From IMG/VR virus record IMGVR_UViG_3300025383_000031, positions 1-57,082 of that record: 57,082 nucleotides of DNA; one strand, given 5' to 3'. The notes beneath the pieces were generated by a model, which saw only the letters and a program-made list of their open reading frames with translations, ran no database searches and was not told the DNA's origin. The translations under genes were made by a program, and so were the position numbers. Positions 12,236-53,141 of this stretch are shown in pieces. Numbering within the stretch: the first letter of the stretch is position 1; every line of letters starts with the position of its first letter. The stretch is from a virus (taxonomy: Duplodnaviria > Caudoviricetes).

Positions 12236-12647
12236 TCTCTTCTCCTTGCTTGTAAAGTTCTAATAGGGTATGGTATTGTTCATAGGCATCCTTAAGTGTA
12301 GGATACTTTTCGGTAAAGTATGGATCATCTGCGATAATCATCATCTTATCTGCAATCATCATAACAGTTTTATACAATTTATCAAGATTTATTTCATTAT
12401 GATTGGTTTTAATAATTGCATCACCTTTATCTTGTGGTGTAATTTGCAATTCTCTACCCATTATTGATACTGATGGACTTCCAGTAGTCCCCCAACTCAT
12501 AGAACCGCTATTTGTTAGATATCCAGTGCCGCCATTACCACCGCCACCGCCGCCACCAGAAATTGTATATGTTGTAGATGAACCAGTAGCACCGATTGGT
12601 GGTGCAAATGTTGTATTAGACGGATTTTGGACGGTTTTTACGATCAT
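12216..12647 (-). CDS. Hypothetical protein
   Basis: Gly/Thr-rich N-terminus; KYPTLKDAYEQY C-terminal motif also seen in 55615-55893. Confidence 0.65.
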   Translation of the reverse strand: MIVKTVQNPSNTTFAPPIGATGSSTTYTISGGGGGGGNGGTGYLTNSGSMSWGTTGSPSVSIMGRELQITPQDKGDAIIKTNHNEINLDKLYKTVMMIADKMMIIADDPYFTEKYPTLKDAYEQYHTLLELYKQGEESDNEKL

Positions 12648-12969
12648 GCTTCATTTTAGCAGCCATCGCATCGGGTGTCAATTTATATTTTGCAATAAAC
12701 GCATTATGAAGGTCTTTTGGATCAACTTCAAACTCACGGCATATTTGTTGCATCATGCTATCAATGCCATCATAGTCAGTGCGTTCTGCACCATCAAGTG
12801 TGCTTGCAAGACGCTCAACAGCGTTTATCATGTTCTTACTATCGCTGCCACGAACGATGGTATCATATTTCCAACGAGCAGCCATTAGCCCACGAGCACC
12901 TGCACTGACAGGATGACGACCTTGAATAGTAGTGCTCATTGTTGCTTCGGTAATTTCTCTAATGCGCAT
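12616..12969 (-). CDS. Putative capsid-internal protein (leader MRIREITE)
   Basis: Leader resembles the T4 capsid-targeting sequence; TAAATA 5 nt upstream of ATG. Confidence 0.65.
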   Translation of the reverse strand: MRIREITEATMSTTIQGRHPVSAGARGLMAARWKYDTIVRGSDSKNMINAVERLASTLDGAERTDYDGIDSMMQQICREFEVDPKDLHNAFIAKYKLTPDAMAAKMKHDRKNRPKSV

Positions 12970-16599: not shown

Positions 16600-17553
16600 T
16601 TATGACTTTGCTTTGGTGCTCACACGAATTGGTGCCTTGCCACTGCCGCCAGTATCTTTACCGCCACGACCTGCTGCGTTTTGTGCTTTGCGCTTACGAG
16701 TAACTGCACTCTTCTTTTGCGCAGCACTCATGCTACGTGCTTTTGCTGCTGGAACACATTTAGCATAACCACTCTTGCTACCACTGGTACCGCATGGGGG
16801 ATGCTTACCACCAACTTTCTTGCCAATATTAACCCACTTGTCCTTAAACCACTTATGAAGATTGCCGCTTGCTTCTGGTAGCACTAAATTACCACAGTGC
16901 ATGCAATAATCAACTTGTTCAAGTAGCACACTTTCTGTAATTGGGTCACAGCGCAGTTCTGTACTTTCTGTGGCCATTTCTGTTGCGATTTTTTTCTTAT
17001 ATACGTATAGTTTGTAACCTGAACTATCATCGTTAAAAATTTTATTCTGTTGAACTGGATCGGTTACAGCCTTAAAACCCATCTGCTCAAAGAATTTTGC
17101 TGCCCTATCATATAATTTAATTCTGCTTAATTCGTTTGATTTTGCGCCCATGACAATTACTTCGGCATTGGGATGTCTTGCAATAAAGTGATTTAAACAA
17201 TAGGCAACACCGTTAAATATTTTAAAAACAGTATCCTTTTCAGTTCCAGTTGCAGCATGGGTATCGGGTCTTGACTGTGTTTTATTTTCGAAAGCCAATA
17301 CATAATAATTTTCATTATATTCTTTAAATGTGACTTCAATTTTGGTTTTACCAACAGTGAAATCATAATCAGAACCGTAATTATCTGCATACACGTCAAA
17401 ATTTTCTGGCGCTTTATTTACATCAATAAATTCTTCAATTTCTTCGCTTTCGTTCTTGACGCAGTTTGGGTATGTCTTGCCAAACATCTTCTTGTTACCT
17501 TCTTTGTGGTAACCTTTCCAACATGCTTCACCAAGAACATCTTCCATCTTCAT
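16600..17553 (-). CDS. Modular putative capsid-internal protein
   Basis: Leader MKMEDVLGE; CWKGY...PNCV module; central SRIKLY domain; CxxC; Glu-free basic C-terminal domain. Confidence 0.7.
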   Translation of the reverse strand: MKMEDVLGEACWKGYHKEGNKKMFGKTYPNCVKNESEEIEEFIDVNKAPENFDVYADNYGSDYDFTVGKTKIEVTFKEYNENYYVLAFENKTQSRPDTHAATGTEKDTVFKIFNGVAYCLNHFIARHPNAEVIVMGAKSNELSRIKLYDRAAKFFEQMGFKAVTDPVQQNKIFNDDSSGYKLYVYKKKIATEMATESTELRCDPITESVLLEQVDYCMHCGNLVLPEASGNLHKWFKDKWVNIGKKVGGKHPPCGTSGSKSGYAKCVPAAKARSMSAAQKKSAVTRKRKAQNAAGRGGKDTGGSGKAPIRVSTKAKS

Positions 17554-17954
17554 TTGGATTTATTTCCCCAATTTTTAGCACCAGCCTTACGGCACTTAAC
17601 TAGCGCACCACTTGCGTAAGCACTTGGCCATACTTTGTAACGGCTCTTTACTTTATAATAGCAAGCATCCTTCTTTTCATCTACACGAGATTCTGGTAGC
17701 ATAAGTCCGCCACAATGCGGGCAACTTTCTTCTACATGGTCGTGTGCGGCACTGCCAACAATTTCATTATAATTGTCCATGCAAAGATAATCGTGGTGCT
17801 TGGATAATTTAATCATCTTTTCAGCAACATCATGCAAATCTTCATCGGTTTTTGCATCTTCACGAGCATATTCCATCATACGTAGCAGTAGCGGAATATC
17901 CATACTAACTGTATCGGTTTTGTCTGCTTCGCTTACAATCTGCCTAATACGCAT
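17550..17954 (-). CDS. Modular putative capsid-internal protein
   Basis: Leader MRIRQIVSE; DIPLLLRMMEYARED module; CPHC; basic C-terminal WPSAYASG module after VDE. Confidence 0.7.
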   Translation of the reverse strand: MRIRQIVSEADKTDTVSMDIPLLLRMMEYAREDAKTDEDLHDVAEKMIKLSKHHDYLCMDNYNEIVGSAAHDHVEESCPHCGGLMLPESRVDEKKDACYYKVKSRYKVWPSAYASGALVKCRKAGAKNWGNKSK

Positions 17955-19765
17955 TACTTTTTGCCTTTAGGTTTTTTACCACGTTTTTTCATATTAATAG
18001 CAATAGCTGCTTGCTGTGCAAGATTCTTTGCTTCATCTAACATACGCATGATATCACGACTGTTGTTACTTTCAGTTCCACTTGCCATATATTCGTGATC
18101 ATCAAAGTTTTCCATTTCTTTCTTTAATGCTGCACGTTCTTGTGCTGAAAGTGTGCCATATGCTTTCATAATGCTACGCACATCTCCTGATACAGGCGCT
18201 GCTGCTCCACCTGCTGCTCCACCTGTTGGTGCTGTAGTGGGCGCTGCCGCTCCACCTGCCGCTCCACCTGCTGCTCCACCTGCTGCTGGCGCTGTTGCTG
18301 GCGCTGTTGCTGTAGGAGCAGCTTGTTTTGGCGCACGGGACCCACGAGGGAATGGAATTTTCATATTCTTAAATGTAGTTTTAATTATTTCATCGCTAAC
18401 GCCTTGCTTGCGTAAAAAGTCAAGAACTACTGCACTATCAACGCTTTTAGATTGCCCGCTGTATGAAAAACCAGGACCGTTTTTCCATGCATTGTTTAGC
18501 TTGTCTGCAGTAACTTTATTGGCTAAATTGCTGCCAATCGTGCTTACTTTATTACCAATAGCACTACCAATATTTTTCAAGCCTTGAACAAAACCAGCTT
18601 CTTCAATTTGATGGAAAATTACAGGAACTGCGCTTTCAAATACCCACACGCTGCGAGCGCCATCATCAAGTACGCCTTCACGTAAGAACCAATCTTGCAT
18701 TGTAGCATCACGATCTACATATTGGCTGCTATTTGTAACTTTCTTAGCACCTGCGGCTGCTACTCGCTTTGCAGTATCTGATGCTGTACCAACACCACCT
18801 TGATAAATTGGATTACCCGTTGGCTTTGGAATTTTAAGTGTAGCGCCAGCACGAATTGCATCTGGGTTATTAGCATATTGTGGATTTGCATCAACTAAAT
18901 CTTTTACACTTACATTATATTGTTTAGCAATAGTGCTTAAATTAGAACCATTTGGCACCTTCATAGTAGTATAATCTTGCGGACCTAAATCAGTACCAGC
19001 ACGATATCCTTGAACACCTGATACATTATTTTGTGCTGCAGTTGTATCATACGGACCACCATCAGTACCAGCATGATATCCTTGAACTCCTGATACATTA
19101 TTTTGTGCTGCAGTTGTATCATACGGACCACCATCAGTACCAGCATGATATCCTTGCACCTTTGATGGGGCAGGAGCGGCACCTTTAAGATAACTTGCTA
19201 ATTCACGACCAAGACCAGCAGCACCAGCAGTAACACCGCCCTTAATCATAGCAGCACTTAGTTTATCGCCTTGTAGCAGACGATCTGTCATCTTCATAAG
19301 ACCCAACACTGCAATGGGAGCAGCACCACCAGTTGCTAAGCCAACGACTGCAACAAGTGCGCCATAGATTAGATTTTGAATAATTGGATGCTTTTTAGCA
19401 AGCGCACGATACGCATAAACATGCTTAGCAAGACCTTCGTCACCACCAGTAGCATCTTTTAGTTTTGCAGCCATACTATCAAAAGCATTATCAAATCCTT
19501 TAACTGGACCTAAATTTCCAATTTTAGAGATAATACCTTGATATGCATTATTTACAGCAGCGCCTGCTTTGCCAGCAACATCTACGCCTTTGCCAAGCGC
19601 AGTTCTGTTAGTGCCACTTGCTCTTGCGCCTTGCTCAATTGCACCAAAAAGCGCAGTAATCTGCTCTGGACTTAGTTTTGCTTCACTAATCGCACGACCG
19701 GCACTAGTCCAACTTTCCATTAGCGGATTAAAATCTGCTGCTTCAAATAACGCTGTTGTATTCAT
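17954..19765 (-). CDS. LysM-containing Ala/Gly-rich putative ejection protein
   Basis: LysM (VPNGSNLSTIAKQYNVSVKDLVDANP...IRAGATLKIP), hydrophobic segment, leader MNTTALFE. Confidence 0.75.
   Translation of the reverse strand: MNTTALFEAADFNPLMESWTSAGRAISEAKLSPEQITALFGAIEQGARASGTNRTALGKGVDVAGKAGAAVNNAYQGIISKIGNLGPVKGFDNAFDSMAAKLKDATGGDEGLAKHVYAYRALAKKHPIIQNLIYGALVAVVGLATGGAAPIAVLGLMKMTDRLLQGDKLSAAMIKGGVTAGAAGLGRELASYLKGAAPAPSKVQGYHAGTDGGPYDTTAAQNNVSGVQGYHAGTDGGPYDTTAAQNNVSGVQGYRAGTDLGPQDYTTMKVPNGSNLSTIAKQYNVSVKDLVDANPQYANNPDAIRAGATLKIPKPTGNPIYQGGVGTASDTAKRVAAAGAKKVTNSSQYVDRDATMQDWFLREGVLDDGARSVWVFESAVPVIFHQIEEAGFVQGLKNIGSAIGNKVSTIGSNLANKVTADKLNNAWKNGPGFSYSGQSKSVDSAVVLDFLRKQGVSDEIIKTTFKNMKIPFPRGSRAPKQAAPTATAPATAPAAGGAAGGAAGGAAAPTTAPTGGAAGGAAAPVSGDVRSIMKAYGTLSAQERAALKKEMENFDDHEYMASGTESNNSRDIMRMLDEAKNLAQQAAIAINMKKRGKKPKGKK
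18197..18312. repeat. 12-bp low-complexity coding repeat (GGAA/APAT linker)
   Basis: Repeated gctgctccacct / gctgttgctggc units. Confidence 0.7.
18989..19160. repeat. 72-bp coding tandem repeat, ~2.4 copies (QGYHAGTDGGPYDTTAAQNNVSGV)
   Basis: atcagtaccagc recurs at 18989, 19061 and 19133. Confidence 0.95.
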
Positions 19766-21920: not shown

Positions 21921-22085
21921 TTATCCAAAAGAATGGACACGGCGCTCAACTTTGGATACCCATGCCTTACTAGGCTTTCCATGACCTTTATAGTATTGTA
22001 GCGGCTTGCCAGTTGTTTTACTGACAAGCGCCCAACGACCTTTTACTTTTTTCAATGTTTCGGTTATAAACTCGTGTGCTCTCAT
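21921..22085 (-). CDS. Small basic putative capsid-internal protein (leader MRAHEFITE)
   Basis: Closest match to T4 MKTYQEFIAE; ATGA overlap with the upstream gene. Confidence 0.75.
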   Translation of the reverse strand: MRAHEFITETLKKVKGRWALVSKTTGKPLQYYKGHGKPSKAWVSKVERRVHSFG

Positions 22086-25000
22086 GATAGTTGCCCTACG
22101 CTCCAACCAGTTAGTCCAGCACCATTTGCTAGCGGTGTAAAATGGCGCACCGCATCTTGATAAGAATTAAAAGTTCCATTTTCTGATATCTGTCTACCTT
22201 GAACAAATAGCGCATACTCACCACGCCCACCAGGATTTGCAATTCTAGGTCTAGGTGCTGGTGTAAGTTCAGCAGCAGGTTGATTTACAATAGCCTCGCC
22301 TGGTCCCATATAGAATAATTCTTGTTCTTGGGTATCGGGATCAACAGCAAACATCTGAATACCATTAATGCCACCCAATGTGCCACCCCAACGCACCGAA
22401 CTGCTATTGCGTCGTTGAATATCATTAGCATGCTCTTTTGCTTGTTCTGGATCGTTGTAAGTAAATGAAGTAATGGTTTGTCCAGTATCTGTGTATTTTA
22501 ACAGATACTTTACAGCACGACCTGTAGCAGCACCAGAAGCAGTTGTATTTGATTGTGCCGCTTGTGGTGGCAGTGATGGCACACGGTCTTCGCCTCTACT
22601 AGTAATACGCATCATTTCATCACGCAAGTATTGTAGTGAATATTCATCTAATAGTAGAACACCAAAACGATCTGCTCGCAAACCACTTACGCCCCAATGT
22701 TTTTCAGCCGCAGGAGCAGCCATCTTTACTATTTCACTTTGATATGTTGAATACATTTCAACCTGTGGAATAAACACTATTGTTTTACTGTCCATTTCAT
22801 TTGGATTAGTAGAATAGTATTGAACACGAACCATACTGTAGCCAGGGTAACGCAGACTTACATCAGCAAGTGGCATCTGACGGTCATGGGCAAACTTCAC
22901 TGCTGCCTCAATCATATCATATGGAGCAGTGCCATTGATTTTTACTACTTGCTCGCCGTCTTCATTTTCCAAGAAACCATCAACTGGTCCGCTGCCTATC
23001 GGTGCAATAGGCTTACGACGCTCTTGGGCAGTGCGTAATTCTTTAACAAGTTGTTCTTTGTCAATAGCGCCAGCAGTGTATTTGGCAAACAATTGCATAG
23101 TATTGTCTTTTTCACCTATACCAGCACTTACAAACTTATACAGTTTCTTTTGATATTCTCTGCTTGCATCTTCAGTATCAGCAGCGGCACCTATGACACG
23201 AACATAACGCAACATAGTATTGCGAATTTTTTCATATTGTTCAAAATAGTTACCACCAGCACTGCGGAACTCAATATAATTTGGCTTGATATTCACGCTA
23301 ACATAACGGTCGCCACGAGGAACCAATAGTTTATTGATTTCTTTTTTGGCAATATCTTGCAATCCACCACGCATCTTATCAAGGATTGCTGGTACATTCT
23401 TTCGGGCATTTCTACCACGCACTTCACGCTTTGCTTGATCAAAACTACTCTTAGTCCATCGTGAACCAGCACGACCAAATGCTTTAAGCACATACTCATC
23501 ACCAAGCAACATGATTACTTTAAGATGGTCAATGTTTTCTAAGGTTTGATTAGGGATACTAACACCAATATGGAAACCTGTTGTGCGGTTTGTATAATAA
23601 TCATTGCTCTTTGCCCAATCAAATACATTCTCTAACGCAGCCAAGCCATCTTCTAGGTTCATTGGAGGTGATACAAGTTCAATACCACCATCGCCATCAT
23701 CATTTGGACTATCTAGCGAACTATCTGGTTCAAATATCCAAGTGCTTTCATCACGAGTTGCTCCGTGATATCCACTGCTTGCTCGTGCTTTATAACCAGT
23801 TGTGCGTCTAAAATCATCAACAACATCACCAATGTCTGTGGTTGGTTCTTCTCTACTTCTGCTATATGTATAATGCGGCCAAGTTAGCGATTCACGAGTA
23901 TTGCGATTTACCCAACGCATCCAATCATACATGTCATCAATGCTATTACGACTTAAGAATCTGCCCCAAGTATATTCTTCGTTTTCTTCCATCCAATTGG
24001 TGCGAACATTATCTTTGGCATCATCAAGTTCTCGCTCACTTGCCTCGTCCATAGGCGTATCGCCTAATTCTTCTTGAACTGCGTCTTTGTAATCATCAGT
24101 GCCTTCAAATTCATTATCATAGGTTTCATATTGGTATTCACTAAATGCTTCATAGAACGATTCTAATGCACTTTCAACATCACTGCGAGTATTGTAATCG
24201 CTAACAAAAAAATCCATAACATCACGCTGACGATCACGATATGAAGCCGTGCCAGGAAAATCCTCATTGGCATCCATATCCTCTTCTTCTTCCTCATCGC
24301 CTTCTTCACCGCCAAGACCAGGAATATACATTTCGGTTTCAAATCCAACCTTCATGCTCTTGGCAAATGGAGTATCAGCAAACTTTTCAAGAGATGTAGG
24401 ACTCATATTGATTTCGTTTAGGATACTTTCTTCAATACTTTCGTTACGAGGAGCAAGTTGAACTTCATAATCCTCATCACCAAGATGTTCATCTGACCAA
24501 GATTCAGCATAGCGTTCAGCACCACGAGGTGATGCTGCACGGAACTCGTGGACTACACCACCTCTGGCAATGATTTGGTATTTTACACCTTCCACAGCAG
24601 TAATGTTAGAAGATGTGGCTGTTGCATTTGCTGGAATAGCATTGCCCGTAATATCATAACCACGATCTATTTCTAACTGTGAATATTGGCGTGGTTGTTC
24701 TGGTTGTGCGGTTGGTTGAGGAATTACTTGACCTTGCGTATCCCATAGATTATTGTTGTTTGGTGATCTTATAGCAATACTTGCTAATGGTAGATTACGT
24801 TCTTGCGCAAATCTTTGGGCTGCTTGCGTTGCTGCGTAAAAACTTTGTGCTTGTGTTGCTAATAATTCTGTGCCATCGCTACGGTTTACAACAACATAGG
24901 TTGCTGCGCCACCACTGGGCAATTGTAGTGCTTGTGTACCAGCACCAGGTATTGGTGTATTTGAATCATCGTTTGCAAGGGATAAGAACCAATCGCTATC

Positions 25001-26908
25001 ACGATAACCATATTCACGCGTCAGACGAGCAGCAATGTCTCGTGCTTGCTCATTATCTGGCGCACGAAACTGTGTAACCGCCTGCTGATTGTTTGATCTG
25101 CGGATAACATACATAGGTTGAATAGATGATACAGTTCGATCACCGCCAATTGATAATGGTTGGCGTGTTAGAATATCATCTGCTTGACCATCACGATCAC
25201 GAGTATCTCTTAACGCTACTAGGTCAAATGAACGACCACTTGCTCGCACTATGCGTGTGGCAATATCATATACATCACTGTAAGTCATTCTTGGAGATAC
25301 TACAAATGATTGCCATGGGTTGCCAGTTATACGACTGATAATCTGAAATGTAATACCACCAATCCCATCGTAATCTACATACGGTGTATCATCATCGTCA
25401 CCACCACCAACATTTGGTTGCGGTGCTTTTGCTTTCTTGGCAAAATCACGCTTGCTTTGTGCTGTTTTAACATAACTTATAAGTGCTGCGCGAGGCATAT
25501 TACCTGTTGCAAATGCTGTGAAATACTTGATAGTATCGGTTTCATCTTTTTTATCAGCAGTAAGCAGTTTGGCAAATTTCTTTTGGTATTCTTGGCGTTC
25601 TGCTTCTGGGTCAAGGGCAATGTTCATAGCATATACAACACGTAACAGTGTGTTTACTACTTCATCAGTATCCATATCAAGCCAGTTACCGCCTGGTGAA
25701 CGAAACTCTACACGATTATCTTTTGTATTGATACTTGTAAACTTGTCAGTATAACCACTGTGAATAAGTTTGGATGCTACTAGATTTAAATTCTGACGCA
25801 TCGCATCAACGGCTTTATTAGCCTTTTCTGGATTTTGTTTAATGAATGAGGCAATCTGTTCAAACGCACTACGAGCGTATGAATTACCAAGACGACCAAA
25901 CTTTTCAAGAATATACTTGTCGCCTAAAAATAGTGCAAGTTTAACATAATCAAGTTTATCTAACTTATAACCTGGTATAGAGATGTTCATATGCAAACCA
26001 GTTTTATCATTGGTATAAGCATTGCCATCTTTTGCCCACGCCTTGACCTTATTGATTTGGTCAATCATAGTTGTGATATCAAGTGGTGGTGATACAAACT
26101 CTAAACCTTCGCCACCTTTGCCACGAGTAGGTTGTAGACTGCTATCTGGTTCAATAACATACGCATCGTTTGGCTTTGCTATGCCGTGATAACTGCCGCT
26201 CTTAATAGTCTTCATACCAACAGCACGACGGAAATCACCTACATCAACAGTAGAGCGAGTTCTGCGGTCATAATAATCAGGTTCAGTCCAGTTTGGCCAA
26301 GATAGCCCAAGACTGCTATTATTTGCCAAATTACTCATATATGCGCCACCATAGTTGTCTTCTAAAAATTGTTCAAGATAGTCGTCAATGTTATCGTCAT
26401 CTTCAAGATTATCTACCCAAGTTTGGAAATATCGTGATTTAAACTCTTCATATGGATCAATCGTATCAATTTCTTTAAATAGTTCTGCTTGATTAGCATA
26501 ATCACGACCATAACGTTGGTCAATAAAATCTTGAATACGGGCGCTAGTATAATTATCCCATAGCGGACCTTCAATATAATCGTTCCATGCGTCATGGATC
26601 AAAGCAGTTGCAAAGTTTACTTCACGACGACTATTGTGGTCGCCAACGAAGAACTGCGTAACATCTTGTACTAATGCACTAAAACTTGCGGTAGAAACAC
26701 GCTCATCTTGGTCATAGTCTGGTTCGCTATCAAAGTCTTCATATGGATCATAATCATCATCTTCCTCTTCTTCAAGATTAGTGACGATAAGTTCAAATTC
26801 AAGACCTGCCTTGGCATTGGGAATCTTTGCCACTGCCGCACGAAGGGCTGACGGACTCATATTCACTTCATTTAGGATTTCTTCAAGGATTAGGTCTTTG
26901 TCGCTCAT
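22082..26908 (-). CDS. 1608-aa protein with two tandem amidoligase (COOH-NH2 ligase) domains plus short repeats
   Basis: Twice: G[LF]E.E, EPDSSL, G.E.VSPP, TG.H...S, EFRS.GG; both copies start ILNE-[VI]NMSP; TAAATA at 26914-26919. Confidence 0.85.
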   Translation of the reverse strand: MSDKDLILEEILNEVNMSPSALRAAVAKIPNAKAGLEFELIVTNLEEEEDDDYDPYEDFDSEPDYDQDERVSTASFSALVQDVTQFFVGDHNSRREVNFATALIHDAWNDYIEGPLWDNYTSARIQDFIDQRYGRDYANQAELFKEIDTIDPYEEFKSRYFQTWVDNLEDDDNIDDYLEQFLEDNYGGAYMSNLANNSSLGLSWPNWTEPDYYDRRTRSTVDVGDFRRAVGMKTIKSGSYHGIAKPNDAYVIEPDSSLQPTRGKGGEGLEFVSPPLDITTMIDQINKVKAWAKDGNAYTNDKTGLHMNISIPGYKLDKLDYVKLALFLGDKYILEKFGRLGNSYARSAFEQIASFIKQNPEKANKAVDAMRQNLNLVASKLIHSGYTDKFTSINTKDNRVEFRSPGGNWLDMDTDEVVNTLLRVVYAMNIALDPEAERQEYQKKFAKLLTADKKDETDTIKYFTAFATGNMPRAALISYVKTAQSKRDFAKKAKAPQPNVGGGDDDDTPYVDYDGIGGITFQIISRITGNPWQSFVVSPRMTYSDVYDIATRIVRASGRSFDLVALRDTRDRDGQADDILTRQPLSIGGDRTVSSIQPMYVIRRSNNQQAVTQFRAPDNEQARDIAARLTREYGYRDSDWFLSLANDDSNTPIPGAGTQALQLPSGGAATYVVVNRSDGTELLATQAQSFYAATQAAQRFAQERNLPLASIAIRSPNNNNLWDTQGQVIPQPTAQPEQPRQYSQLEIDRGYDITGNAIPANATATSSNITAVEGVKYQIIARGGVVHEFRAASPRGAERYAESWSDEHLGDEDYEVQLAPRNESIEESILNEINMSPTSLEKFADTPFAKSMKVGFETEMYIPGLGGEEGDEEEEEDMDANEDFPGTASYRDRQRDVMDFFVSDYNTRSDVESALESFYEAFSEYQYETYDNEFEGTDDYKDAVQEELGDTPMDEASERELDDAKDNVRTNWMEENEEYTWGRFLSRNSIDDMYDWMRWVNRNTRESLTWPHYTYSRSREEPTTDIGDVVDDFRRTTGYKARASSGYHGATRDESTWIFEPDSSLDSPNDDGDGGIELVSPPMNLEDGLAALENVFDWAKSNDYYTNRTTGFHIGVSIPNQTLENIDHLKVIMLLGDEYVLKAFGRAGSRWTKSSFDQAKREVRGRNARKNVPAILDKMRGGLQDIAKKEINKLLVPRGDRYVSVNIKPNYIEFRSAGGNYFEQYEKIRNTMLRYVRVIGAAADTEDASREYQKKLYKFVSAGIGEKDNTMQLFAKYTAGAIDKEQLVKELRTAQERRKPIAPIGSGPVDGFLENEDGEQVVKINGTAPYDMIEAAVKFAHDRQMPLADVSLRYPGYSMVRVQYYSTNPNEMDSKTIVFIPQVEMYSTYQSEIVKMAAPAAEKHWGVSGLRADRFGVLLLDEYSLQYLRDEMMRITSRGEDRVPSLPPQAAQSNTTASGAATGRAVKYLLKYTDTGQTITSFTYNDPEQAKEHANDIQRRNSSSVRWGGTLGGINGIQMFAVDPDTQEQELFYMGPGEAIVNQPAAELTPAPRPRIANPGGRGEYALFVQGRQISENGTFNSYQDAVRHFTPLANGAGLTGWSVGQLS

Positions 26909-26925
26909 TTATATATTTACCGTTT

Positions 26926-29900
26926 TTAAGGTTTGCGTTGTTTATTCAAATACTGTACTTTTGCGCCATTTTCATCTGGTTCAACCTCACGATCCCAAGG
27001 AAATGTGGCTACCTGACGGTCAGGATAATCATTGCCGCCACCAACAGTTCCTATGATAGAACCAGCGTGTTCATTTTGTTGCGGTCCAAATTTCTTTATA
27101 AACTTTGCTTTGTCTTTTGGCATTTCGTAGTCTAATGAAATTTGGTTATCAATTCTGCCTCGCTCATCAACTATTATATCAACTGCAATATGCTTAAATC
27201 CAAGTGCAGTTTGTGCATATACACGATACATCTTTTTAAGGTCAGGCAAGAAACCTTGAACAAAAAACGAAACGGTTGCTTTTGCAAAACGCACATATCC
27301 AAGTTTAAATGCTTCTTCATATCCATCAATGTCTTTACTATAAAGCCATCCCAGATGTTCTTCCTTCGTAACATATTCAACTTTGCGATTAGGCAAAATC
27401 CAACCATGTGTTTCATTCGGGTCAAGTGCTTCTTCAATGCTTTCACTTTGTTGTGCTTCTGCATCCCACTTCTTGTGTAAGAATGTTAGCAAACCTTTTA
27501 CATCGCTAGCACCGATTTTGCGCATTGCTGCAATAATTTTAGTTGCTGCTTCATAACCACTGTTGCCTGGCTTACGAGCATTGGTAATTTCATTACGTAA
27601 CCCAAGGTCATCAGCAAACTGACCACCGCTCCAATAGGTTAAACTATAACGCAGTTTATTTGCTTCTTTGGATAACTCACTGCGTTTCTTCTTAAAGATA
27701 AGTTCTAACCAAGGAGCAAGATATTTCTTACCATTAAAGGTGCTTATATAACCAGTCTTCTTTTGACCACGAATTAAATCTTGGGCTTTGCTTACTGGTA
27801 TTGCTCGTTTGGTGTCCTGTAACTTCCACGCATTTTCATTGCTATAAAGATAAGTTGGTAAGCCACGCTTCTTTGCTACAATCATTAACTGACGAGTAGT
27901 TGGGCTTGCAAATTCACCTGCTTCTTTAAGCAAAATATGAACGGCTGTAATAGCATCTGCTGGTATTGTTGGCTCACGTGAGAATACACGGTCTTCGCTT
28001 TCACTGTGCTTTTGCTTATCAAATCCTGCCCAATAGTCAATTGCTTTAACTGGATAACGACGATTAAACCAATTGCCATCAAGATTAAACATAACAGCAG
28101 TGCCGCCAGTAAATTCGTGATAACCGCCTACTTTGCTGCGAGTGGTAGATAAGAAATAGTTATAACCTTTTGGCGCATACTGATCTTCTACACTACCAGT
28201 AGAAATGCTCAACATAAACTCATTGTTTTTAAGAATGTTTAATGCTGCCCCTACACTGCCTGTATAGTGGAACAGCACTGGTGATGCTGCTTCGTCAATT
28301 TGTGATTCTGCTACTAATTCATTCTTTGTGATAGATTTCATAATCGGTAGATAGCGTGGTTGAACTTTTTCCATATCTTCACGATGTATGTCAAGATGAC
28401 CTTTGCGAATAAGTTCTGCGTGATACATAAAATCACCAAAACCATCTTCTTCTTGTGAAATATGTTGATTGGCATAGTCTTCAAGTTCTTGTGCTATTGC
28501 CAACATGTTGCTATTTGGTTCAATAGTTTCATCTAAATCTTTACGATGACTGCGCTTGTAATATGAACACCAACCATTTGGCGCAATCTTACCACTAACA
28601 GCCGAACAACCATGAGGAGGACGCCACATAGTGCAATGATCACAACGTTGACCATTGCGAGGCATATCCTGGTACTTTGCTACGGCTTTGGTTGATTTTT
28701 CTGCTGCTTCATCTAAATTTTCATTTGCCAAGTCAGGAGCAACCATATAACTGTTCTTGGAACCTGGTGGAAATTCAAAACGTTCCATGCCTTTCTCACG
28801 AGCAGCGGCACGAGCCTTCTTGAACATTAGCGTCCACCAGCGGCGATTAGCATAATCTTTATTGCCCATATAGGCTTTTGGATCAGTAATGCGCAACTCT
28901 GCCCATTGGTCAGGAGTTAGGTCTTCATCTAATTCATACTTTGGCAAACCATATAAATCAAGGTCTGTGCCGTGTGTAGAACCATAATCGGTATCGTCCT
29001 TATTAGGTTCATATGGTTTGCGACCACGTTTTACAAGTTTAGGATTATCGCCCCAATCGCCACCAATGCCTGGTGCTTCGGTAACAATGCCCATTGCCTT
29101 TAACATAGCACGAGCAACTACACGGTCTTTTTCTTTTTCTACTTCTGGCAACTGTGCATAAGTTTGTTGGGCAAGAGCATAACGTTTCTTTTTCTTGTCG
29201 GGAATAGTTGGAGTATCTAACTGCAACTTGCCCATATAATCAGCCACGGCAGTTTTATTCCAACCATCGTGGATAGCATTAGCAATTGCTTCTACATCTG
29301 TAATGCCACTATCAATCATACGCTTTGCAGCAGTGGCACTTTCAATGTTTGCCAACCAACCAAAGTTATTGGTAGGTGTAGATAAACCATAGTGATAAGC
29401 ATCATCAAGTGCTTTATCACTTATGTGTGCAAGTTGTTCTACTGATAGGCTTTCACGGATAATGCTTTCACTGATAATACTTTCTTCAACTGTCTCACTT
29501 AGTCCCATGCCACTACGAACTGCTTGGAATAGTGTTTTACCATCTACCATAATATTTTGTGGCACACGGGTAGCACGTTCAAATGCTTCTGGGTCACCAA
29601 TCTTCGCTGCTTCACGAGCATTTGTAGCACTCGTTAAGCGAGGGCTTTCCATAAAGGATAACGGTTCAAACTGATAGAAACCGTGTGCTACTTGCTTGCC
29701 GTTGTATTGTTCCAATACTGGTCGCATTGATGCCATATCGTCTTCACCAGCCACGAAAGTGGCACTACGGAAGCCTTTGTCATAAAGATATGCGGCTGCT
29801 TGTAAGAATGTTTTAATTGAGGGGTCTTCAACGAGATGTCCTTGTGTTTGTGGATAAAGTGTTTTTACCCATTTTACTTTTTGATCATAGGTAAGAGGAT

Positions 29901-30078
29901 TCTTTTTAGTATCTTGACTTTTACTAAGGAATAATGCCCAACTGCCTTTCTTTGCCACGCTGGCAAGAGTATTAATTAACCCTTCGTGTCCAAAGTGCGG
30001 AGGGTTCATACGTCCAAATGCAAATGAAATATGCGGATTTGGTGCTTCGTTAAAAATGGTGCGATGGCTTAAGGTCAT
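26926..30078 (-). CDS. 1050-aa multidomain protein: HxGH nucleotidyltransferase, RyR-like, HiPIP, ART-like and unknown domains
   Basis: FGRMNPPHFGH; AIHDGW...YAQLPEVEKEKDR; YQ..P..GQRCDHC...C..V.G.IAPNGWC; FHYT...STTRS...ESEDR. Confidence 0.85.
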   Translation of the reverse strand: MTLSHRTIFNEAPNPHISFAFGRMNPPHFGHEGLINTLASVAKKGSWALFLSKSQDTKKNPLTYDQKVKWVKTLYPQTQGHLVEDPSIKTFLQAAAYLYDKGFRSATFVAGEDDMASMRPVLEQYNGKQVAHGFYQFEPLSFMESPRLTSATNAREAAKIGDPEAFERATRVPQNIMVDGKTLFQAVRSGMGLSETVEESIISESIIRESLSVEQLAHISDKALDDAYHYGLSTPTNNFGWLANIESATAAKRMIDSGITDVEAIANAIHDGWNKTAVADYMGKLQLDTPTIPDKKKKRYALAQQTYAQLPEVEKEKDRVVARAMLKAMGIVTEAPGIGGDWGDNPKLVKRGRKPYEPNKDDTDYGSTHGTDLDLYGLPKYELDEDLTPDQWAELRITDPKAYMGNKDYANRRWWTLMFKKARAAAREKGMERFEFPPGSKNSYMVAPDLANENLDEAAEKSTKAVAKYQDMPRNGQRCDHCTMWRPPHGCSAVSGKIAPNGWCSYYKRSHRKDLDETIEPNSNMLAIAQELEDYANQHISQEEDGFGDFMYHAELIRKGHLDIHREDMEKVQPRYLPIMKSITKNELVAESQIDEAASPVLFHYTGSVGAALNILKNNEFMLSISTGSVEDQYAPKGYNYFLSTTRSKVGGYHEFTGGTAVMFNLDGNWFNRRYPVKAIDYWAGFDKQKHSESEDRVFSREPTIPADAITAVHILLKEAGEFASPTTRQLMIVAKKRGLPTYLYSNENAWKLQDTKRAIPVSKAQDLIRGQKKTGYISTFNGKKYLAPWLELIFKKKRSELSKEANKLRYSLTYWSGGQFADDLGLRNEITNARKPGNSGYEAATKIIAAMRKIGASDVKGLLTFLHKKWDAEAQQSESIEEALDPNETHGWILPNRKVEYVTKEEHLGWLYSKDIDGYEEAFKLGYVRFAKATVSFFVQGFLPDLKKMYRVYAQTALGFKHIAVDIIVDERGRIDNQISLDYEMPKDKAKFIKKFGPQQNEHAGSIIGTVGGGNDYPDRQVATFPWDREVEPDENGAKVQYLNKQRKP

Positions 30079-30121: not shown

Positions 30122-31249
30122 TTAATTTGGTGTCCAGCGATGACGAGGCACAAGTTTAATATTAGGTTCGCCATAATTAACATAACCTTCGCCACCTTTT
30201 TGACCTTTGGTAGTTTGTTGAATATCGCCACCTTCACTATCTAATTGGTCAATAATTTGATTCTTAACCGTGCGAAGATTTTCTAATACCGCAAATGTAG
30301 CAATAAATCCTCGTTGATTTTGCGCAATCCAGTCTTGAATTTTTTGTTGCATTGGCGCAGATTGCCTGCTACTGCTAGTTAGCCAAGTTATAAATTCACT
30401 TGCAAGGTCATTTGTTCTGCCAACCCTTGCCATCTGATTGTTAAAGTTATAAAGAACGCCTTTAAATCCTGCCATTTTCATAGCAGCAAGGCGTTCATCA
30501 TTTAAAAAATTATCAATAGCAACTTTATTTGCAGCAACATATTTCTGTAAGTCTTGTAATTTTTTTGTATCAATTTTAACGGGTTGCTGTGCATATTTTG
30601 GACCCAACACAATTAAACCTTGTGTTTTATTAAATGGCGTAAAATCATCAATAGGTTGCTGTTGATCATCGCCCATACCAAACTGTGGAAAGTATGCATG
30701 TCCTACAACTGCTGCGGTTGCTTTTGATATACGTTGGCCAAGTTCAGTTGATTGTGGTACGCTATAGGTAACATTGTTTGGTGTAAATGTGTATGCATTA
30801 TTTTCTAATTGGGGACGACGCATAAACAATAAATCACCATACACATAACCACGAAAATCTTGTGGAGTTGCTGCTTCAAACAGCGCCCATAGACTAGCAT
30901 ACTCATTAGCAAAACGCATACGTTCATCTTCTTTATCGGGCGTAACATTGCCAGTACTCATGATAAATTTAACAAGTTCTGCTGGACTTTGACTTTTTCC
31001 GCTGCTATCGGGTTTTAACCAACCATTGTGTCCAACCATGATAAATTTACCATTTGGCTCACGTCCCCAATATACTTGAGGTTTGCCATCCCATTTCCAA
31101 CGCACGGTTTGTGGATTGCTTGCGAGAGCGGAAAGACGAGAAATGGCAGTAGATGCACCATCACTGCCATTTATCAATACCAAATCTTCTACGTGCTGAA
31201 ATGCACGTCCTACTTTTGGTGCCTCGTTTACTATCTGATTTATGAACAT
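30122..31249 (-). CDS. Ligase-fold (KxDG) covalent nucleotidyltransferase-like protein, leader MFINQIVNE
   Basis: KWDG, YGDLLF, GEGYV, IKLV in the order of ligase motifs I, III, IV, V; TATAAATA at 31254-31261. Confidence 0.65.
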   Translation of the reverse strand: MFINQIVNEAPKVGRAFQHVEDLVLINGSDGASTAISRLSALASNPQTVRWKWDGKPQVYWGREPNGKFIMVGHNGWLKPDSSGKSQSPAELVKFIMSTGNVTPDKEDERMRFANEYASLWALFEAATPQDFRGYVYGDLLFMRRPQLENNAYTFTPNNVTYSVPQSTELGQRISKATAAVVGHAYFPQFGMGDDQQQPIDDFTPFNKTQGLIVLGPKYAQQPVKIDTKKLQDLQKYVAANKVAIDNFLNDERLAAMKMAGFKGVLYNFNNQMARVGRTNDLASEFITWLTSSSRQSAPMQQKIQDWIAQNQRGFIATFAVLENLRTVKNQIIDQLDSEGGDIQQTTKGQKGGEGYVNYGEPNIKLVPRHRWTPN

Positions 31250-31256
31250 CAAATAT

Positions 31257-33549: not shown

Positions 33550-34248
33550 TTACGCTTTCACTTTCTTTACTAATTTATAGACTTTTTTGATACCATCTTG
33601 AAACAACATATACAGTAGCGGAATATTGTCTGCACTTCTGCAATAAACACGAACTGTGCCATAGTAATAACCTGTTTCAAAACCTGTGGCAGTACGAGTA
33701 CACCAGCGATTTAGTTCGTATGGAAATGACAAGTCATCTTTGTTGTTATTAACAAACTCATACAACTCAAGTAGATTTTCTCGCTGTGTTTTTCTGCCAC
33801 CATAGCCACCTGTTTGCCAACCCCAATAAGTTTCAAACTCAACCTGATAAGGAATATCTGGGTCATACCTTGTTTCACTTACCAGTTTAACATCAACTGC
33901 GATATTGTCAAGGTTTTTAATTTCAGAAATATACTGATTATTGCTTGTGGTAAATCCTTTGACTGATGCAAGCAATGATGGATCAGCAAGAATTGCATCA
34001 AGCGCAGTGGTGCTATTCGTAAAGAAACGCAAAAATGATTCTTTACGAAGACGACAGTATGGATCAAGCTTTTTTAAGACATTTCGCATATTTCCAAAAA
34101 TATTCCAATCTCTTGGAATTGCTAGTTCTACACGAAAATGATACTTTCCATACCATAGTTTGTTTTCGGTACTAATATGCCATTTAAACAAATGGTCTTT
34201 AAACCGATCACGGTATTCAATCAGCGTTAATTCTGCTATCTCTGTCAT
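33550..34248 (-). CDS. Hypothetical protein
   Basis: 232-aa ORF overlapping the clpA stop. Confidence 0.7.
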   Translation of the reverse strand: MTEIAELTLIEYRDRFKDHLFKWHISTENKLWYGKYHFRVELAIPRDWNIFGNMRNVLKKLDPYCRLRKESFLRFFTNSTTALDAILADPSLLASVKGFTTSNNQYISEIKNLDNIAVDVKLVSETRYDPDIPYQVEFETYWGWQTGGYGGRKTQRENLLELYEFVNNNKDDLSFPYELNRWCTRTATGFETGYYYGTVRVYCRSADNIPLLYMLFQDGIKKVYKLVKKVKA

Positions 34249-36451
34249 CTTCTGCCACCAATTCTAACTTGTCACCATTTAGGTCCACCTTAATATTAGC
34301 ATAGTTTCCTGTCTTGTCAAACAGTATTTTCTTTGCTAACGGAACTTTAATGTGTTCATGGATAGTGCGTTGCATTGGTCTGGCACCAAGACTTGGAGTA
34401 TATCCTTTCTTGCATAACCAATCCCATGCAGCATCAGTAAGTGAAACAGATGTATTCTTTAGGGCAAGTTGCTCATTAAGGTCACGAATAAACTTCTCTG
34501 CAACCTTGCGAATTGTAGCGTTATCAAGTTTGTTAAATGTAACAATCGCATCCACTCGATTGCGGAACTCTGGGCGGAAGAACTCCTTAACCGCAGCATC
34601 AACTGCATCCACATTTGTACCGCCACCAAAGCCAATAATGTTACGTTCGCTATCAGCAGCACCCAAATTACTAGTCATAATAAGGATAGACTGGCGGCAA
34701 TCTGCTCGTTTGCCATTGGTGCCAGTGATGAAACCTTCGTCCATAACTTGCAACAGCACCTGTGAAACATCAGGATGTGCCTTTTCAATCTCGTCAAAGA
34801 GAATGATAGAATGTGGATTCTTGGCAATCTCACTAATAAGCAACCCACCAGCAAGGTTAGCATCTTCATAGCCAACATAGCCAGGAGGCGCACCAATAAG
34901 GCGTGAGATAGAATGACGTTCTTGATACTCACTCATATCAAAGCGCAGCAACTTCATACTTAAACGATCTGCCAATTGCTTGGCAAGTTCTGTTTTACCT
35001 GTACCAGTAGGTCCAAGGAACAAGAATGAGCCAACAGGCTTGTTATCAGCCTTTAGACCAGCCTGTGATACCCACACACGGTCAAGGACTTTATCAACTG
35101 CCGTATCTTGATTATACACAACTGCTTTAATCTCAGCGCCAATGTTAGGCATAATCTTTTGTGTATTTTCAGCGCCTAACTGTGCTTCTGGAATTCCAGT
35201 AATGCGAGAAAGTTCGCGACGAATCTGCGCCACATCAATGGTGCGTGAGCCACGTGCTTTTGTACGGCGCAATGCTGCAGCACTGTCAATAAGATCAATT
35301 GCTTTATCTGGAAGTTTCTTATCTGCTTGATAACGAGCAGATAGTTCTACTGCCTCACTAATTGCTTCATCGGTAATTTTTACACCATGAAAAGTTTCAT
35401 AGTTTTCTTTAATACCAAGCAGAATAGTTTTACAATCCGCAATACTTGGTTCATCTACAGCAACACGATTGAAACGACGCATAAGCGCACGATCTTTTTC
35501 AAACTGCTGAGTATATTCTTCCCAAGTAGTTGCAGCAATAACCTTAAAATCACCACGAGCAAGTGCTGGTTTTAACATATTAGAAAAATCTACACTGCTA
35601 TTACTGCCACTGCCAGCACCACGCATCTGATGCGCTTCGTCGATGAATAAAATAATGTTACCAAGTTCGGTAGCTGCTGTGATAATTTCTTGAAGCTTCT
35701 CTTCAAAATCACCACGATACTTTGTACCGGCAAGCAGCGAACCAATGTTTAAACTATAAACTTCATGGTCTTTTAGGAATTTTGGTACGTCGTTATTGAC
35801 GATATTATATGCAAGACCTTCTGCAATAGCAGTTTTACCAACGCCAGCGTCACCTACTAGTAACACATTGCATTTGTTCTTGCGAGCAAGAATCTGCGTC
35901 ATATCAGCAATTTCAGTAGTGCGACCAATTACCGCTTCAATCTTGCCATTGCGTACCATCTCATTTAAATTAGTACAATGTTCATCTAGCGCATTGTTTG
36001 CTAGGTTAATATTTTTCTTGTTCTTGCTCTTATTATAAGTTTCAATAACCTTTTCAGGTTCAACGCCATATTTTTTTAGATAAAAAGCAGCATGACTATG
36101 TGATTCTTTTGTAATTGAAAGATAAAGATCACTGATATGAATAGTTTGGCGACCAAGTAAAATTACTTGTGTAAAAGCACGATTGAATACTCGCTCAAGA
36201 CTTTGTGTCTTTTTCGGCTCATCATCTATATTACTTTGTGGATAGTTTTCGAAGATATAATCTTCAATTTCTTTGGCTAGATTCTCTACATCTACACCCA
36301 TTGTCTGTAATACTTGCATAAAACTTTTTTCATGTAGCATAGAATATAGTAAATGTTCAACTGTAAAGTATTGATGATGGTTTTCAGCAGCAAATTGCTT
36401 GGCTACCTTAACAATTTTTTCAAGATCGTTGTTGCTATTAAATTGGGTCAT
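34217..36451 (-). CDS. clpA: ATP-dependent Clp protease ATP-binding subunit ClpA
   Basis: Clp N domain (TVEHLL), two AAA+ modules (GDAGVGKT, GPTGTGKT), KYRGDFEE and GYVG pore loops, IGF ClpP-docking loop. Confidence 0.95.
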   Translation of the reverse strand: MTQFNSNNDLEKIVKVAKQFAAENHHQYFTVEHLLYSMLHEKSFMQVLQTMGVDVENLAKEIEDYIFENYPQSNIDDEPKKTQSLERVFNRAFTQVILLGRQTIHISDLYLSITKESHSHAAFYLKKYGVEPEKVIETYNKSKNKKNINLANNALDEHCTNLNEMVRNGKIEAVIGRTTEIADMTQILARKNKCNVLLVGDAGVGKTAIAEGLAYNIVNNDVPKFLKDHEVYSLNIGSLLAGTKYRGDFEEKLQEIITAATELGNIILFIDEAHQMRGAGSGSNSSVDFSNMLKPALARGDFKVIAATTWEEYTQQFEKDRALMRRFNRVAVDEPSIADCKTILLGIKENYETFHGVKITDEAISEAVELSARYQADKKLPDKAIDLIDSAAALRRTKARGSRTIDVAQIRRELSRITGIPEAQLGAENTQKIMPNIGAEIKAVVYNQDTAVDKVLDRVWVSQAGLKADNKPVGSFLFLGPTGTGKTELAKQLADRLSMKLLRFDMSEYQERHSISRLIGAPPGYVGYEDANLAGGLLISEIAKNPHSIILFDEIEKAHPDVSQVLLQVMDEGFITGTNGKRADCRQSILIMTSNLGAADSERNIIGFGGGTNVDAVDAAVKEFFRPEFRNRVDAIVTFNKLDNATIRKVAEKFIRDLNEQLALKNTSVSLTDAAWDWLCKKGYTPSLGARPMQRTIHEHIKVPLAKKILFDKTGNYANIKVDLNGDKLELVAEDDRDSRINAD

Positions 36452-36457
36452 AATATT

Positions 36458-36485
36458 AATATAGCACCTTTTCTATTTAAGTCAA
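36458..36485 (-). promoter_or_regulatory. Sigma70-type promoter of clpA, probably leaderless
   Basis: TTGACT-16-TATATT with TGC extension; 6 nt to ATG. Confidence 0.75.
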
Positions 36486-37360
36486 GTGTTAATTGGTTTG
36501 ATTTTTTGTATTTGTGCAATTAAATCAAGTTGTTGTGCAGTAAGTGCAGATGGTATAAGGATATTAATCTTGGCAATATACTTGCCACGAGTACCGTTCT
36601 GTCTAGGGAATCCTTCGTCAGTTATACCAAACTGGCTTTGATGTTGAGTTCCTGCTGGAATATTAATTTCAATTGTTTTACCACTTGGTAACATAATTGG
36701 TATATTGCAACCCATGATTGCTTGGAAACAATCAATTGTTATTTCTTCAATAATATTTTCGCCATTTCTTAAAAATCTTGGATGGCTACGAACTATTATC
36801 TGAACTTCTAAATTACCACGAGGCACTGCTGGATTAGCATCATCGCCACGTCCAGAAATAGTAAAAACATTACCGTTTTCAATGCCTGGTGGAATTTCTA
36901 GTTGCAAAGTATCGGTTTGATTTGTTGTTCTAAATTCAATAACTTTTACTTGACGTTCGAACGTTTCTAAAAAATCCATTTCAATAGTTACACGAATATT
37001 ACGATTTCGTGGTTGCTGACGAGTGGCAAATCCAAACTGTTGTGCAAATTGTTCGTGAAATGCACCAAATGGGTCTGGTCCGCCGCCAAAATTAAAATGA
37101 AACTCAAATGGATTACCGCCACCACGGTGTTGTGCCTGGCCATATGGATTATACTGTGGTTGTGGATTGCGCCGAGTATGATCATAATGCGCACGAGCGT
37201 TTGGATCACTTAATGTGCTATATGCCTCGTTAATTTGCTGAAACTTAGCCTGATCACCACCCATATCTGGGTGATGCTGTTTAGCAAGGCTTCTAAAAGC
37301 TGCCTTTAATTCTTCGGGGCTAGCAGTTTCTGCCACTCCCAATGTTTCATAATGATTCAT
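36482..37360 (-). CDS. dnaJ: Class B J-domain chaperone (DnaJ/CbpA-like)
   Basis: HYETLGV, HPD motif, G/F region, C-terminal substrate domains, no zinc finger. Confidence 0.92.
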   Translation of the reverse strand: MNHYETLGVAETASPEELKAAFRSLAKQHHPDMGGDQAKFQQINEAYSTLSDPNARAHYDHTRRNPQPQYNPYGQAQHRGGGNPFEFHFNFGGGPDPFGAFHEQFAQQFGFATRQQPRNRNIRVTIEMDFLETFERQVKVIEFRTTNQTDTLQLEIPPGIENGNVFTISGRGDDANPAVPRGNLEVQIIVRSHPRFLRNGENIIEEITIDCFQAIMGCNIPIMLPSGKTIEINIPAGTQHQSQFGITDEGFPRQNGTRGKYIAKINILIPSALTAQQLDLIAQIQKIKPINT

Positions 37361-52790: not shown

Positions 52791-53141
52791 TTAGACACTA
52801 ATACTTGTTCCGCATCCACATGAACTCTTAGCCATTGGATTTGACACAACTAATTGACTGCTTACAAAATCACTCTTATAATCAATTTCACTACCTAACA
52901 GATACATTAATCCGCTGCCATCTACGATAAGTGACTTACCTTCGCCTAAAGAGATCATCTCATCAATTTGCGGTGAGCCATTCTTAGCATACAATTCATC
53001 ATCAGCAGGTTCCCAGAAATATTCGAAGCCTGCACAGCCACCACCTTTAAGTCCGAATACAAGATATGGCTTGTCAATATTGATAAGTGTGCGACGAATA
53101 TGAGTTTTTGCTGCTTCTGTAATAGTTACTGCTGTTTTCAT
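52791..53141 (-). CDS. iscA: A-type Fe-S cluster carrier (IscA/SufA/HesB)
   Basis: ITEAA, GGGCAGFEY, GSEIDY, NP.AKSSCGCGTS. Confidence 0.93.
   Translation of the reverse strand: MKTAVTITEAAKTHIRRTLINIDKPYLVFGLKGGGCAGFEYFWEPADDELYAKNGSPQIDEMISLGEGKSLIVDGSGLMYLLGSEIDYKSDFVSSQLVVSNPMAKSSCGCGTSISV

Follow-up and report, generated by a model that had tools for sequence, protein, structure and literature searches.

A PioC-like HiPIP module within a protein of a giant T4-like phage, and its possible delivery as capsid cargo

High-potential iron-sulfur proteins (HiPIPs) are electron carriers of the bacterial periplasm that are exported by the twin-arginine translocation (Tat) pathway, normally receive their cluster in the cytoplasm before export, and surround that cluster with Tyr and other aromatic residues. 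The described proteins closest to the element considered here are PioC of Rhodopseudomonas palustris TIE-1 (6xyv, 54 residues), the Rhodocyclus tenuis HiPIP (1isu) and Iro of Acidithiobacillus. The element itself is a HiPIP module encoded within a 1050-residue open reading frame (ORF) of IMG/VR record IMGVR_UViG_3300025383_000031 (Duplodnaviria; Caudoviricetes), a viral record of 57,082 bases that was analysed over its whole length and is called the window from this point on. The window is judged 17% complete, which puts the full genome at about 330 kb, and its source is a giant T4-like phage with a genome of roughly that size. The phage module shares with PioC, 1isu and Iro the same fold, the C-x2-C-x8-C-x12-C spacing, and the conserved Tyr and Gly-Trp-Cys. 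Unlike them, it lies internal to a protein, with no Tat signal and no periplasmic context.

Two phage systems offer further points of comparison. In T4, the first 10 residues of internal protein IPIII suffice for head loading, targeting depends on leader residues 4 and 7 and processing on residues 8 and 10, as set out in the available part of PMC9026906; the head protease gp21 cuts Alt at ITE-6 and LTE-619, according to the accessible portion of PMC5694885. In the T4 record, IPII and IPIII both begin MKTYQEFIAE, and IPI begins MKTFKEF. Stand-alone phage HiPIPs resemble IPI, IPII, IPIII and Alt in having a leader of about 10 residues, hydrophobic at positions 4 and 7, with [LIV] at position 8 and Glu at position 10. 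HiPIP-bearing relatives also possess a gp21-type protease, and an ADP-ribosyltransferase (ART)-fold companion module recalls Alt. Unlike the T4 internal proteins, the cargo here is predicted to be an iron-sulfur (Fe-S) protein, and a single ORF strings together many cargo units, separated by joints of the processing type. Several unrelated enzyme or effector domains likewise share one polypeptide in the polyvalent proteins of phages and conjugative elements (Iyer et al. 2017, PMC5512222), which the available part of that paper predicts to be packaged and delivered; in the window protein the domains are nucleotidyltransferase, HiPIP and ART-fold, and HiPIP relatives are fused to MuF, InPase and ParB-like domains. 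The joints described below fit a T4-type head protease, unlike the metallopeptidase domains discussed in that part of the paper. The terms HiPIP, iron-sulfur, Fe-S and 4Fe-4S are absent from its main text (the supplements lay outside the search), and a literature search on phage HiPIPs, polyvalent proteins and iron-sulfur ejection proteins found no paper describing a phage HiPIP, as judged by titles and the openings of abstracts. The reading that fits best, and that we lean towards accepting, is that the 1050-residue protein is a capsid-targeted cargo polyprotein from which a head protease releases a [4Fe-4S] HiPIP of about 60 residues that travels with the DNA.

A miniature HiPIP inside a phage protein

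The features on which the identification rests are as follows; HSP denotes a high-scoring segment pair from comparison with homologs.

26926..30078, minus strand: multi-module ORF of 1050 residues, candidate capsid-cargo polyprotein (ORF listing; mosaic homologs P0001-P0022, whose module orders differ)
28528..28707, minus strand: predicted mature HiPIP module, residues 458-517, 60 residues (Pfam HIPIP, PioC, AlphaFold2 (AF2), Foldseek)
28567..28644, minus strand: span of the codons for the four cluster-ligand Cys (C479, C482, C491, C504), invariant and aligned with the Cys of PioC
28708..28716, minus strand: upstream joint L455-D-E457, predicted head-protease site, cut after Glu457 (homolog HSP ends at 449-462)
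28528..28536, minus strand: downstream joint L515-D-E517, predicted head-protease site (11 homolog HSPs stop at residue 518; motif listing)

An earlier note, made from the sequence alone, had proposed a HiPIP domain embedded in a phage polyprotein at 28558-28690. The peptide that it quoted, AVAKYQDM...GWCSYY, is indeed encoded here, at 28558..28686 on the minus strand, as residues 465-507 of the ORF; the interval is right at its start, ends 4 nucleotides too far and out of frame, and was given without a strand. The features that it described are present: Leu-Asp-Glu stands on either side of the domain (residues 455-457 and 515-517), there is no signal peptide, the domain being internal to the ORF (residues 458-517) with no twin-Arg leader, and the four Cys (C479, C482, C491 and C504) follow the C-x2-C-x8-C-x12-C spacing, with Gly-Trp-Cys. 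These four are the sole Cys among all 1050 residues.

That the domain is a HiPIP, as proposed, is borne out by a Pfam profile, by a pairwise match to PioC and by the predicted fold. The Pfam HIPIP model (PF01355) has a curated cut-off of 22 bits; a search with it matched the excised module (66 residues) at 26.7 bits (E 6.9e-6) and the piece taken from six-frame translation at 25.7 bits, and at E<=0.01 it also recovers 14 of 16 phage-type relatives. When phmmer was run against all PDB sequences, PioC (6xyv) was the best match, at E 1.1e-9, with no gaps over 49 residues and the four Cys in register, and the HiPIP of R. tenuis followed (E 6e-4). The NCBIfam model of the HiPIP-type iron oxidase Iro (NF041615) matches with E 4.3e-12, but scores 46 bits against an equivalog cut-off of 100 bits. 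A scan of 1.84 billion representatives returned 1173 relatives at E<=1e-3. When 122 relatives are aligned, a single Tyr, all four Cys and a single Val never vary, and conservation of the Gly-Trp that precedes the last Cys is at least 90%; the invariant Tyr stands before the first Cys, as in HiPIPs. An AF2 model of the module built from this alignment has a mean predicted local distance difference test (pLDDT) score of 87, with core blocks at 93-95. Foldseek comparison of the model with the PDB places HiPIPs at all of ranks 1-18, and the model superposes on 1isu at 1.1 Å over 55 columns and on PioC (6xyv) at 1.3 Å over 48, with 40% identity to PioC in the fold alignment. The match far exceeds what chance would give, and the conclusion that this segment encodes a genuine PioC/Iro-type miniature HiPIP is solid. 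Given that homology, the module, which has a net charge of +5 over its 60 residues, very probably binds one [4Fe-4S] cluster through Cys479, Cys482, Cys491 and Cys504.

A shuffled cassette bounded by [LIV]-x-Glu joints

The same module, at 71-96% identity, occurs in 22 giant proteins (974-1764 residues, on contigs of up to 348 kb) in which the flanking regions differ, ParB-like and amidoligase domains being among them. The full four-Cys motif is present in 21 of the 22, the remaining one being cut at its N-terminus, and 15 have no Cys beyond the ligands. In these proteins the conserved block is immediately preceded by ...[LIV]-x-E and closes on ...D-[LV]-[DE]-E; an ART-fold module follows immediately in 12. 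Comparison of the window protein with its relatives places homology break points at 200-211, 335, 388, 449-462, 518, 585-596, 884 and 1003, and 12 of the 16 [LIV]xE sites in the protein fall at homology joints. Among distinct HSP end points, 18 of 27 lie no more than 5 residues from an [LIV]xE site, as against a random mean of 4.3, and none of 20000 random placements reaches 18, in a test that treats linked points because HSP end points are mutually dependent. What is shuffled among these proteins is a HiPIP cassette with [LIV]-x-Glu joints at its ends.

Three further parts of the protein were delimited.

30046..30078, minus strand: N-terminal leader of 11 residues, ending ...IFNE, before the cytidylyltransferase-like module
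29479..30045, minus strand: cytidylyltransferase-like nucleotidyltransferase module, residues 12-200 (phrog_3041, E 4e-35)
27430..28290, minus strand: ART-fold module, residues 597-883, after joints VAE591 and IDE596

Pfam CTP_transf_like matches residues 12-200 weakly, at 17.1 bits where the cut-off is 21, and alignments to stand-alone cyanophage cytidylyltransferases begin no earlier than query residues 11-17. For residues 597-883, an AF2 model (pLDDT 85) finds by Foldseek the ART-fold enzymes DarT and Tpt1/KptA at E 1.8e-4 to 1e-2, with modest template-modelling (TM) scores. This module has 399 shorter homologs, and 103 of the 106 that stand alone (<=335 residues) carry a leader ending in [LIVFM]xE, followed by the same mature start. 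It lacks a Pfam family of its own, with hundreds of leader-bearing stand-alone homologs.

Leaders, head proteases and the rival readings

A scan of viral contigs with one peptide pattern and a 16-sequence alignment (A2) found 167 relatives, from which 80 loci (52 distinct sequences) were kept. These comprise 58 stand-alone genes of 64-321 residues and 22 copies embedded in giant ORFs. An [LIVFMT]xE motif stands no more than 16 residues before the conserved Tyr in all 80 loci and all 52 distinct sequences, and in alignment A2 the window Glu457 matches the last leader Glu of the stand-alone HiPIPs and does not vary. The 148 best database relatives include 58 short proteins with a twin-Arg signal, 36 short proteins without a signal, and 13 proteins of at least 200 residues, and many of the signal-less ones start with a leader of 8-10 residues ending in [LIVF]-x-E. 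Both P4 and P7 are hydrophobic in 20 of the 32 distinct N-terminal leaders, compared with 3 of 16 internal joints, and those three all come from short ORFs in which an upstream in-frame start makes the leader look internal. A hydrophobic P3 is common to both (31 of 32 leaders, 13 of 16 joints). This pattern at P3, P4 and P7 agrees with the division of roles in the T4 leader and suggests that the joints retain the determinants of cutting and not those of targeting.

These counts bear on the possibility that the chain stays uncut as a cytoplasmic multidomain enzyme, in which the HiPIP cluster would relay electrons internally or act as a cofactor, structural or regulatory, for catalytic neighbours such as the ART-fold module. 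The domain does sit within a single ORF and directly precedes the ART-fold module in more than half of the giant homologs (12 of 22), and HiPIP-like small subunits of benzylsuccinate synthase are among its fold matches, only at E 3.5. Leader-bearing stand-alone HiPIP genes nevertheless exceed embedded ones by 58 to 22 among the 80 loci, and where the module is embedded its neighbours vary between homologs. Since, moreover, the Glu of the joint lines up with the last Glu in the leaders of the stand-alone genes and each module tested also occurs as a separate leader-bearing gene, we regard an uncut enzyme as unlikely.

Elsewhere in phages, HiPIPs are fused to Phage_Mu_F, InPase and LysM plus GH19 domains and, weakly, to a ParB-like nuclease. 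In P0045, P0059, P0046, P0080 and P0082, a short leader and HiPIP are fused to a LysM plus GH19 lysozyme-like region, to InPase or to a MuF head protein. A tandem pair of PioC-like HiPIP domains is found in P0024, P0028 and P0029, with a twin-Arg signal on P0024 and P0029.

A head protease of the T4 gp21 type (Peptidase_S77) is encoded in 11 of 14 HiPIP-bearing viral records and in all seven of those at least 90% complete; the three records without one are 41-60% complete. The close relative G001, whose HiPIP is 90% identical to that of the window, has terminal repeats and is complete at 338 kb. Its protease gene adjoins scaffold-like and gp23-type capsid genes, and its capsid protein has ...YLAE immediately before the conserved core.

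Under the cargo-polyprotein reading, the chain would be made in the cytoplasm, where the HiPIP would receive its cluster. A T4-style N-terminal leader, in place of the bacterial Tat signal, would carry it into the prohead, and a gp21-type head protease would cut after the Glu of the [LIV]-x-Glu joints, freeing a basic HiPIP of about 60 residues together with the neighbouring nucleotidyltransferase and ART-fold modules. The released pieces would remain inside the capsid and later pass into the host together with the DNA; early in infection the HiPIP, compact and stable in air, could then serve there as a one-electron redox partner or sensor. Packaging and cleavage seem to us reasonably probable. 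The earlier suggestion that a redox-active or iron-carrying module could be packaged in the virion gains indirect backing from the [LIV]xE joints, the leaders resembling the T4 capsid-targeting sequence (CTS), the gp21-type proteases (seven of seven near-complete records) and the MuF and InPase fusions, and it is from these that we infer packaging itself. A role after delivery as one-electron partner or sensor for co-delivered enzymes or for a host target is a guess, and a doubtful one. The wider proposal, offered tentatively, is that T4-like aquatic phages, a cultured cyanophage among them, have replaced the Tat signal of a bacterial HiPIP with a CTS leader and load and inject this air-stable [4Fe-4S] protein, which would serve enzymes injected with it as redox trigger or partner at the very start of infection.

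Several observations weigh against this account. The leader of the window protein itself (...TIFNE) is hydrophobic at P3 and P4 but has His at P7, a weaker match to the CTS. No head genes and no Peptidase_S77 protease were found in the 57-kb window, which is 17% of the genome, so that the window protein is linked to a protease through relatives that carry the gene. Within the full 1050-residue protein, the Pfam HIPIP match falls to 20.4 bits (E 6.6e-4), 1.6 bits below the cut-off. The [LIV]xE motif is short and the linkers are Glu-rich, and four of the 16 sites (84, 123, 719 and 972) lie inside modules; the mutual dependence of HSP end points, mentioned above, belongs here also. Net charge does not differ between phage-type and Tat-type HiPIPs (median +4 in both, P 0.71). 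On a domain tree of 45 columns, in which 3 of 185 inner branches are strongly supported, the polyprotein modules form one clade (Shimodaira-Hasegawa-like approximate likelihood ratio test (SH-aLRT) 96). On the same poorly resolved tree, the 63 phage-type rows are set apart from the 56 Tat-type rows, with 2 label changes needed as against a shuffled mean of 39.8; kin sequences share labels, so this separation gives neither a donor nor an order of events. The T4 late-promoter motif TATAAATA is not enriched in the window (4 matches, 8.2 expected), and a copy of TATAAATA beside the cluster, considered as a sign of late expression, overlaps the stop codon of the upstream gene and is uninformative. 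Finally, the analyses made indicated no redox partner for the phage HiPIP.

A second alternative, in our view still less probable than an uncut enzyme, is that the HiPIP, cleaved or not, is the product of an auxiliary metabolic gene and acts as a soluble electron carrier in the infected cell without being packaged. Cyanophages carry genes for electron carriers of this kind, such as ferredoxin and plastocyanin. An A-type Fe-S carrier gene, which would suit such a role, does occur in the window.

52791..53141, minus strand: A-type Fe-S carrier gene of the IscA/ErpA/SufA family (Pfam Fe-S_biosyn, E 7e-11; TIGR00049)

Its product scores 65.7 bits against TIGR00049 (cut-off 58.8) and falls below the cut-offs of the ErpA, SufA and IscA equivalog models. 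The gene lies about 24 kb from the HiPIP both in the window and in G001. The earlier note had suggested that this gene could assist cluster loading and pointed to co-occurrence across related phages; as a general rule, co-occurrence failed, with an IscA-type gene in one of the 12 related records searched (G012 and G014 were left out) and in one of the seven at least 90% complete. Only the window and G001, its close relative, pair the HiPIP with such a gene. Among 50,697 deposited phage records, IscA-like genes were found in just 11, and several of those 11 resemble bacterial contigs or huge phages that are uncultured. In the same 50,697 records, the sole HiPIP carrier is the cultured Synechococcus phage S-SRM01 (two records), and no IscA-like gene was detected in it by tblastn at E<=1e-3. 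Its gp061, a protein of 67 residues annotated as hypothetical, consists of MKSFQEFLFE followed by the HiPIP, and the main text of the S-SRM01 paper contains no HiPIP or iron-sulfur term (the supplements lay outside the search). Against an unpackaged carrier, leaders of this kind look like the T4 CTS, unlike the N-terminus of a metabolic protein, and none is present on the genes neighbouring gp061. HiPIPs are fused elsewhere to MuF, InPase and lysin domains, and the modules flanking the HiPIP in the window protein are without Cys. Nor is a cytoplasmic partner known for any HiPIP.

That the four Cys hold Zn or a non-redox cluster, the domain being a stable mini-fold that serves as capsid filler or as a DNA-associated internal protein, is quite improbable, for a module that is as small and basic (+5 over 60 residues) as the T4 internal proteins are said to be in the available part of PMC9026906 also has 40% identity to PioC with conserved Tyr, Trp and Gly-Trp-Cys, and its 71-96% identity in shuffled contexts suggests a specific surface.

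Gene setting and what delivery of a HiPIP would mean

The window encodes a T4-type family-B DNA polymerase (PolB), a ClpB-like ATPase and a large YHYH/Ig-like protein, as well as the A-type Fe-S carrier. Two proteins encoded on either side of the 1050-residue ORF also bear on its composition.

22082..26908, minus strand: amidoligase-like neighbour of 1608 residues with 0 Cys (Amidoligase_2, E 3.7e-12)
30122..31252, minus strand: DUF6267 neighbour with leader ...QIVNE and 0 Cys (DUF6267, E 2.8e-28)

Across the three adjacent leader-bearing proteins (1608, 1050 and 375 residues; 3033 in total) the only Cys are the four HiPIP ligands. Elsewhere in the window, Cys makes up 0.79% of PolB and 0.67% of the ClpB-like protein, and PolB, the ClpB-like protein and an exonuclease together span 0.7-0.9%. 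Avoidance of Cys would fit proteins that spend time outside cells.

The 1608-residue protein has two amidoligase-like units, and its N-terminal ...EILNEVNMSP is repeated in mid-protein as ...SILNEINMSP, as if two leader-bearing genes had been fused. The family phrog_455 covers both the DUF6267 protein and the N-terminal part of the 1050-residue protein, which indicates that these two are fused in other phages. Pfam and NCBIfam searches of the remaining modules and neighbours returned little except DUF6267, DUF6934, Amidoligase_2 and NT5C; a match to Pfam RyR was below threshold (16.7 bits against a cut-off of 27.4) and was not relied on.

More genes with CTS-like leaders occur on the minus strand between 12616 and 22085, and may form a cargo gene cluster adjoining the DNA polymerase gene. 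They are 12616..12969 (MRIREITE...), 16600..17553 (DUF6934, 8 Cys), 17550..17954 (5 Cys), 17954..19765 (LysM, 0 Cys) and 21921..22085 (MRAHEFITE...). The ClpB-like gene, at 34217..36451 on the minus strand, encodes a full-length ClpB/ClpA-like double-AAA+ protein (phrog_4871, E 3e-248), and we take the N-terminus of the product of the gene after it, 36482..37360 on the same strand, to be J-domain-like. At 46704..50516, also on the minus strand, a protein of 1270 residues combines YHYH with He_PIG Ig-like domains, and its PHROG matches are annotated as baseplate or virion structural proteins.

The HiPIP fold is a widespread phage cassette, with the 167 relatives that one search pattern found on viral contigs, and occurs behind a head-loading tag or within cargo polyproteins. 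Because the cultured phage S-SRM01 has the stand-alone form, direct testing is possible. If the account given here is true, virion cargo would for the first time be known to include an iron-sulfur redox protein. Were the HiPIP packaged with its cluster, capsids would deliver redox cofactors in addition to DNA and enzymes, T4-type leaders would be able to recruit metalloproteins into the head, and virions would carry protein-bound iron in iron-poor waters.

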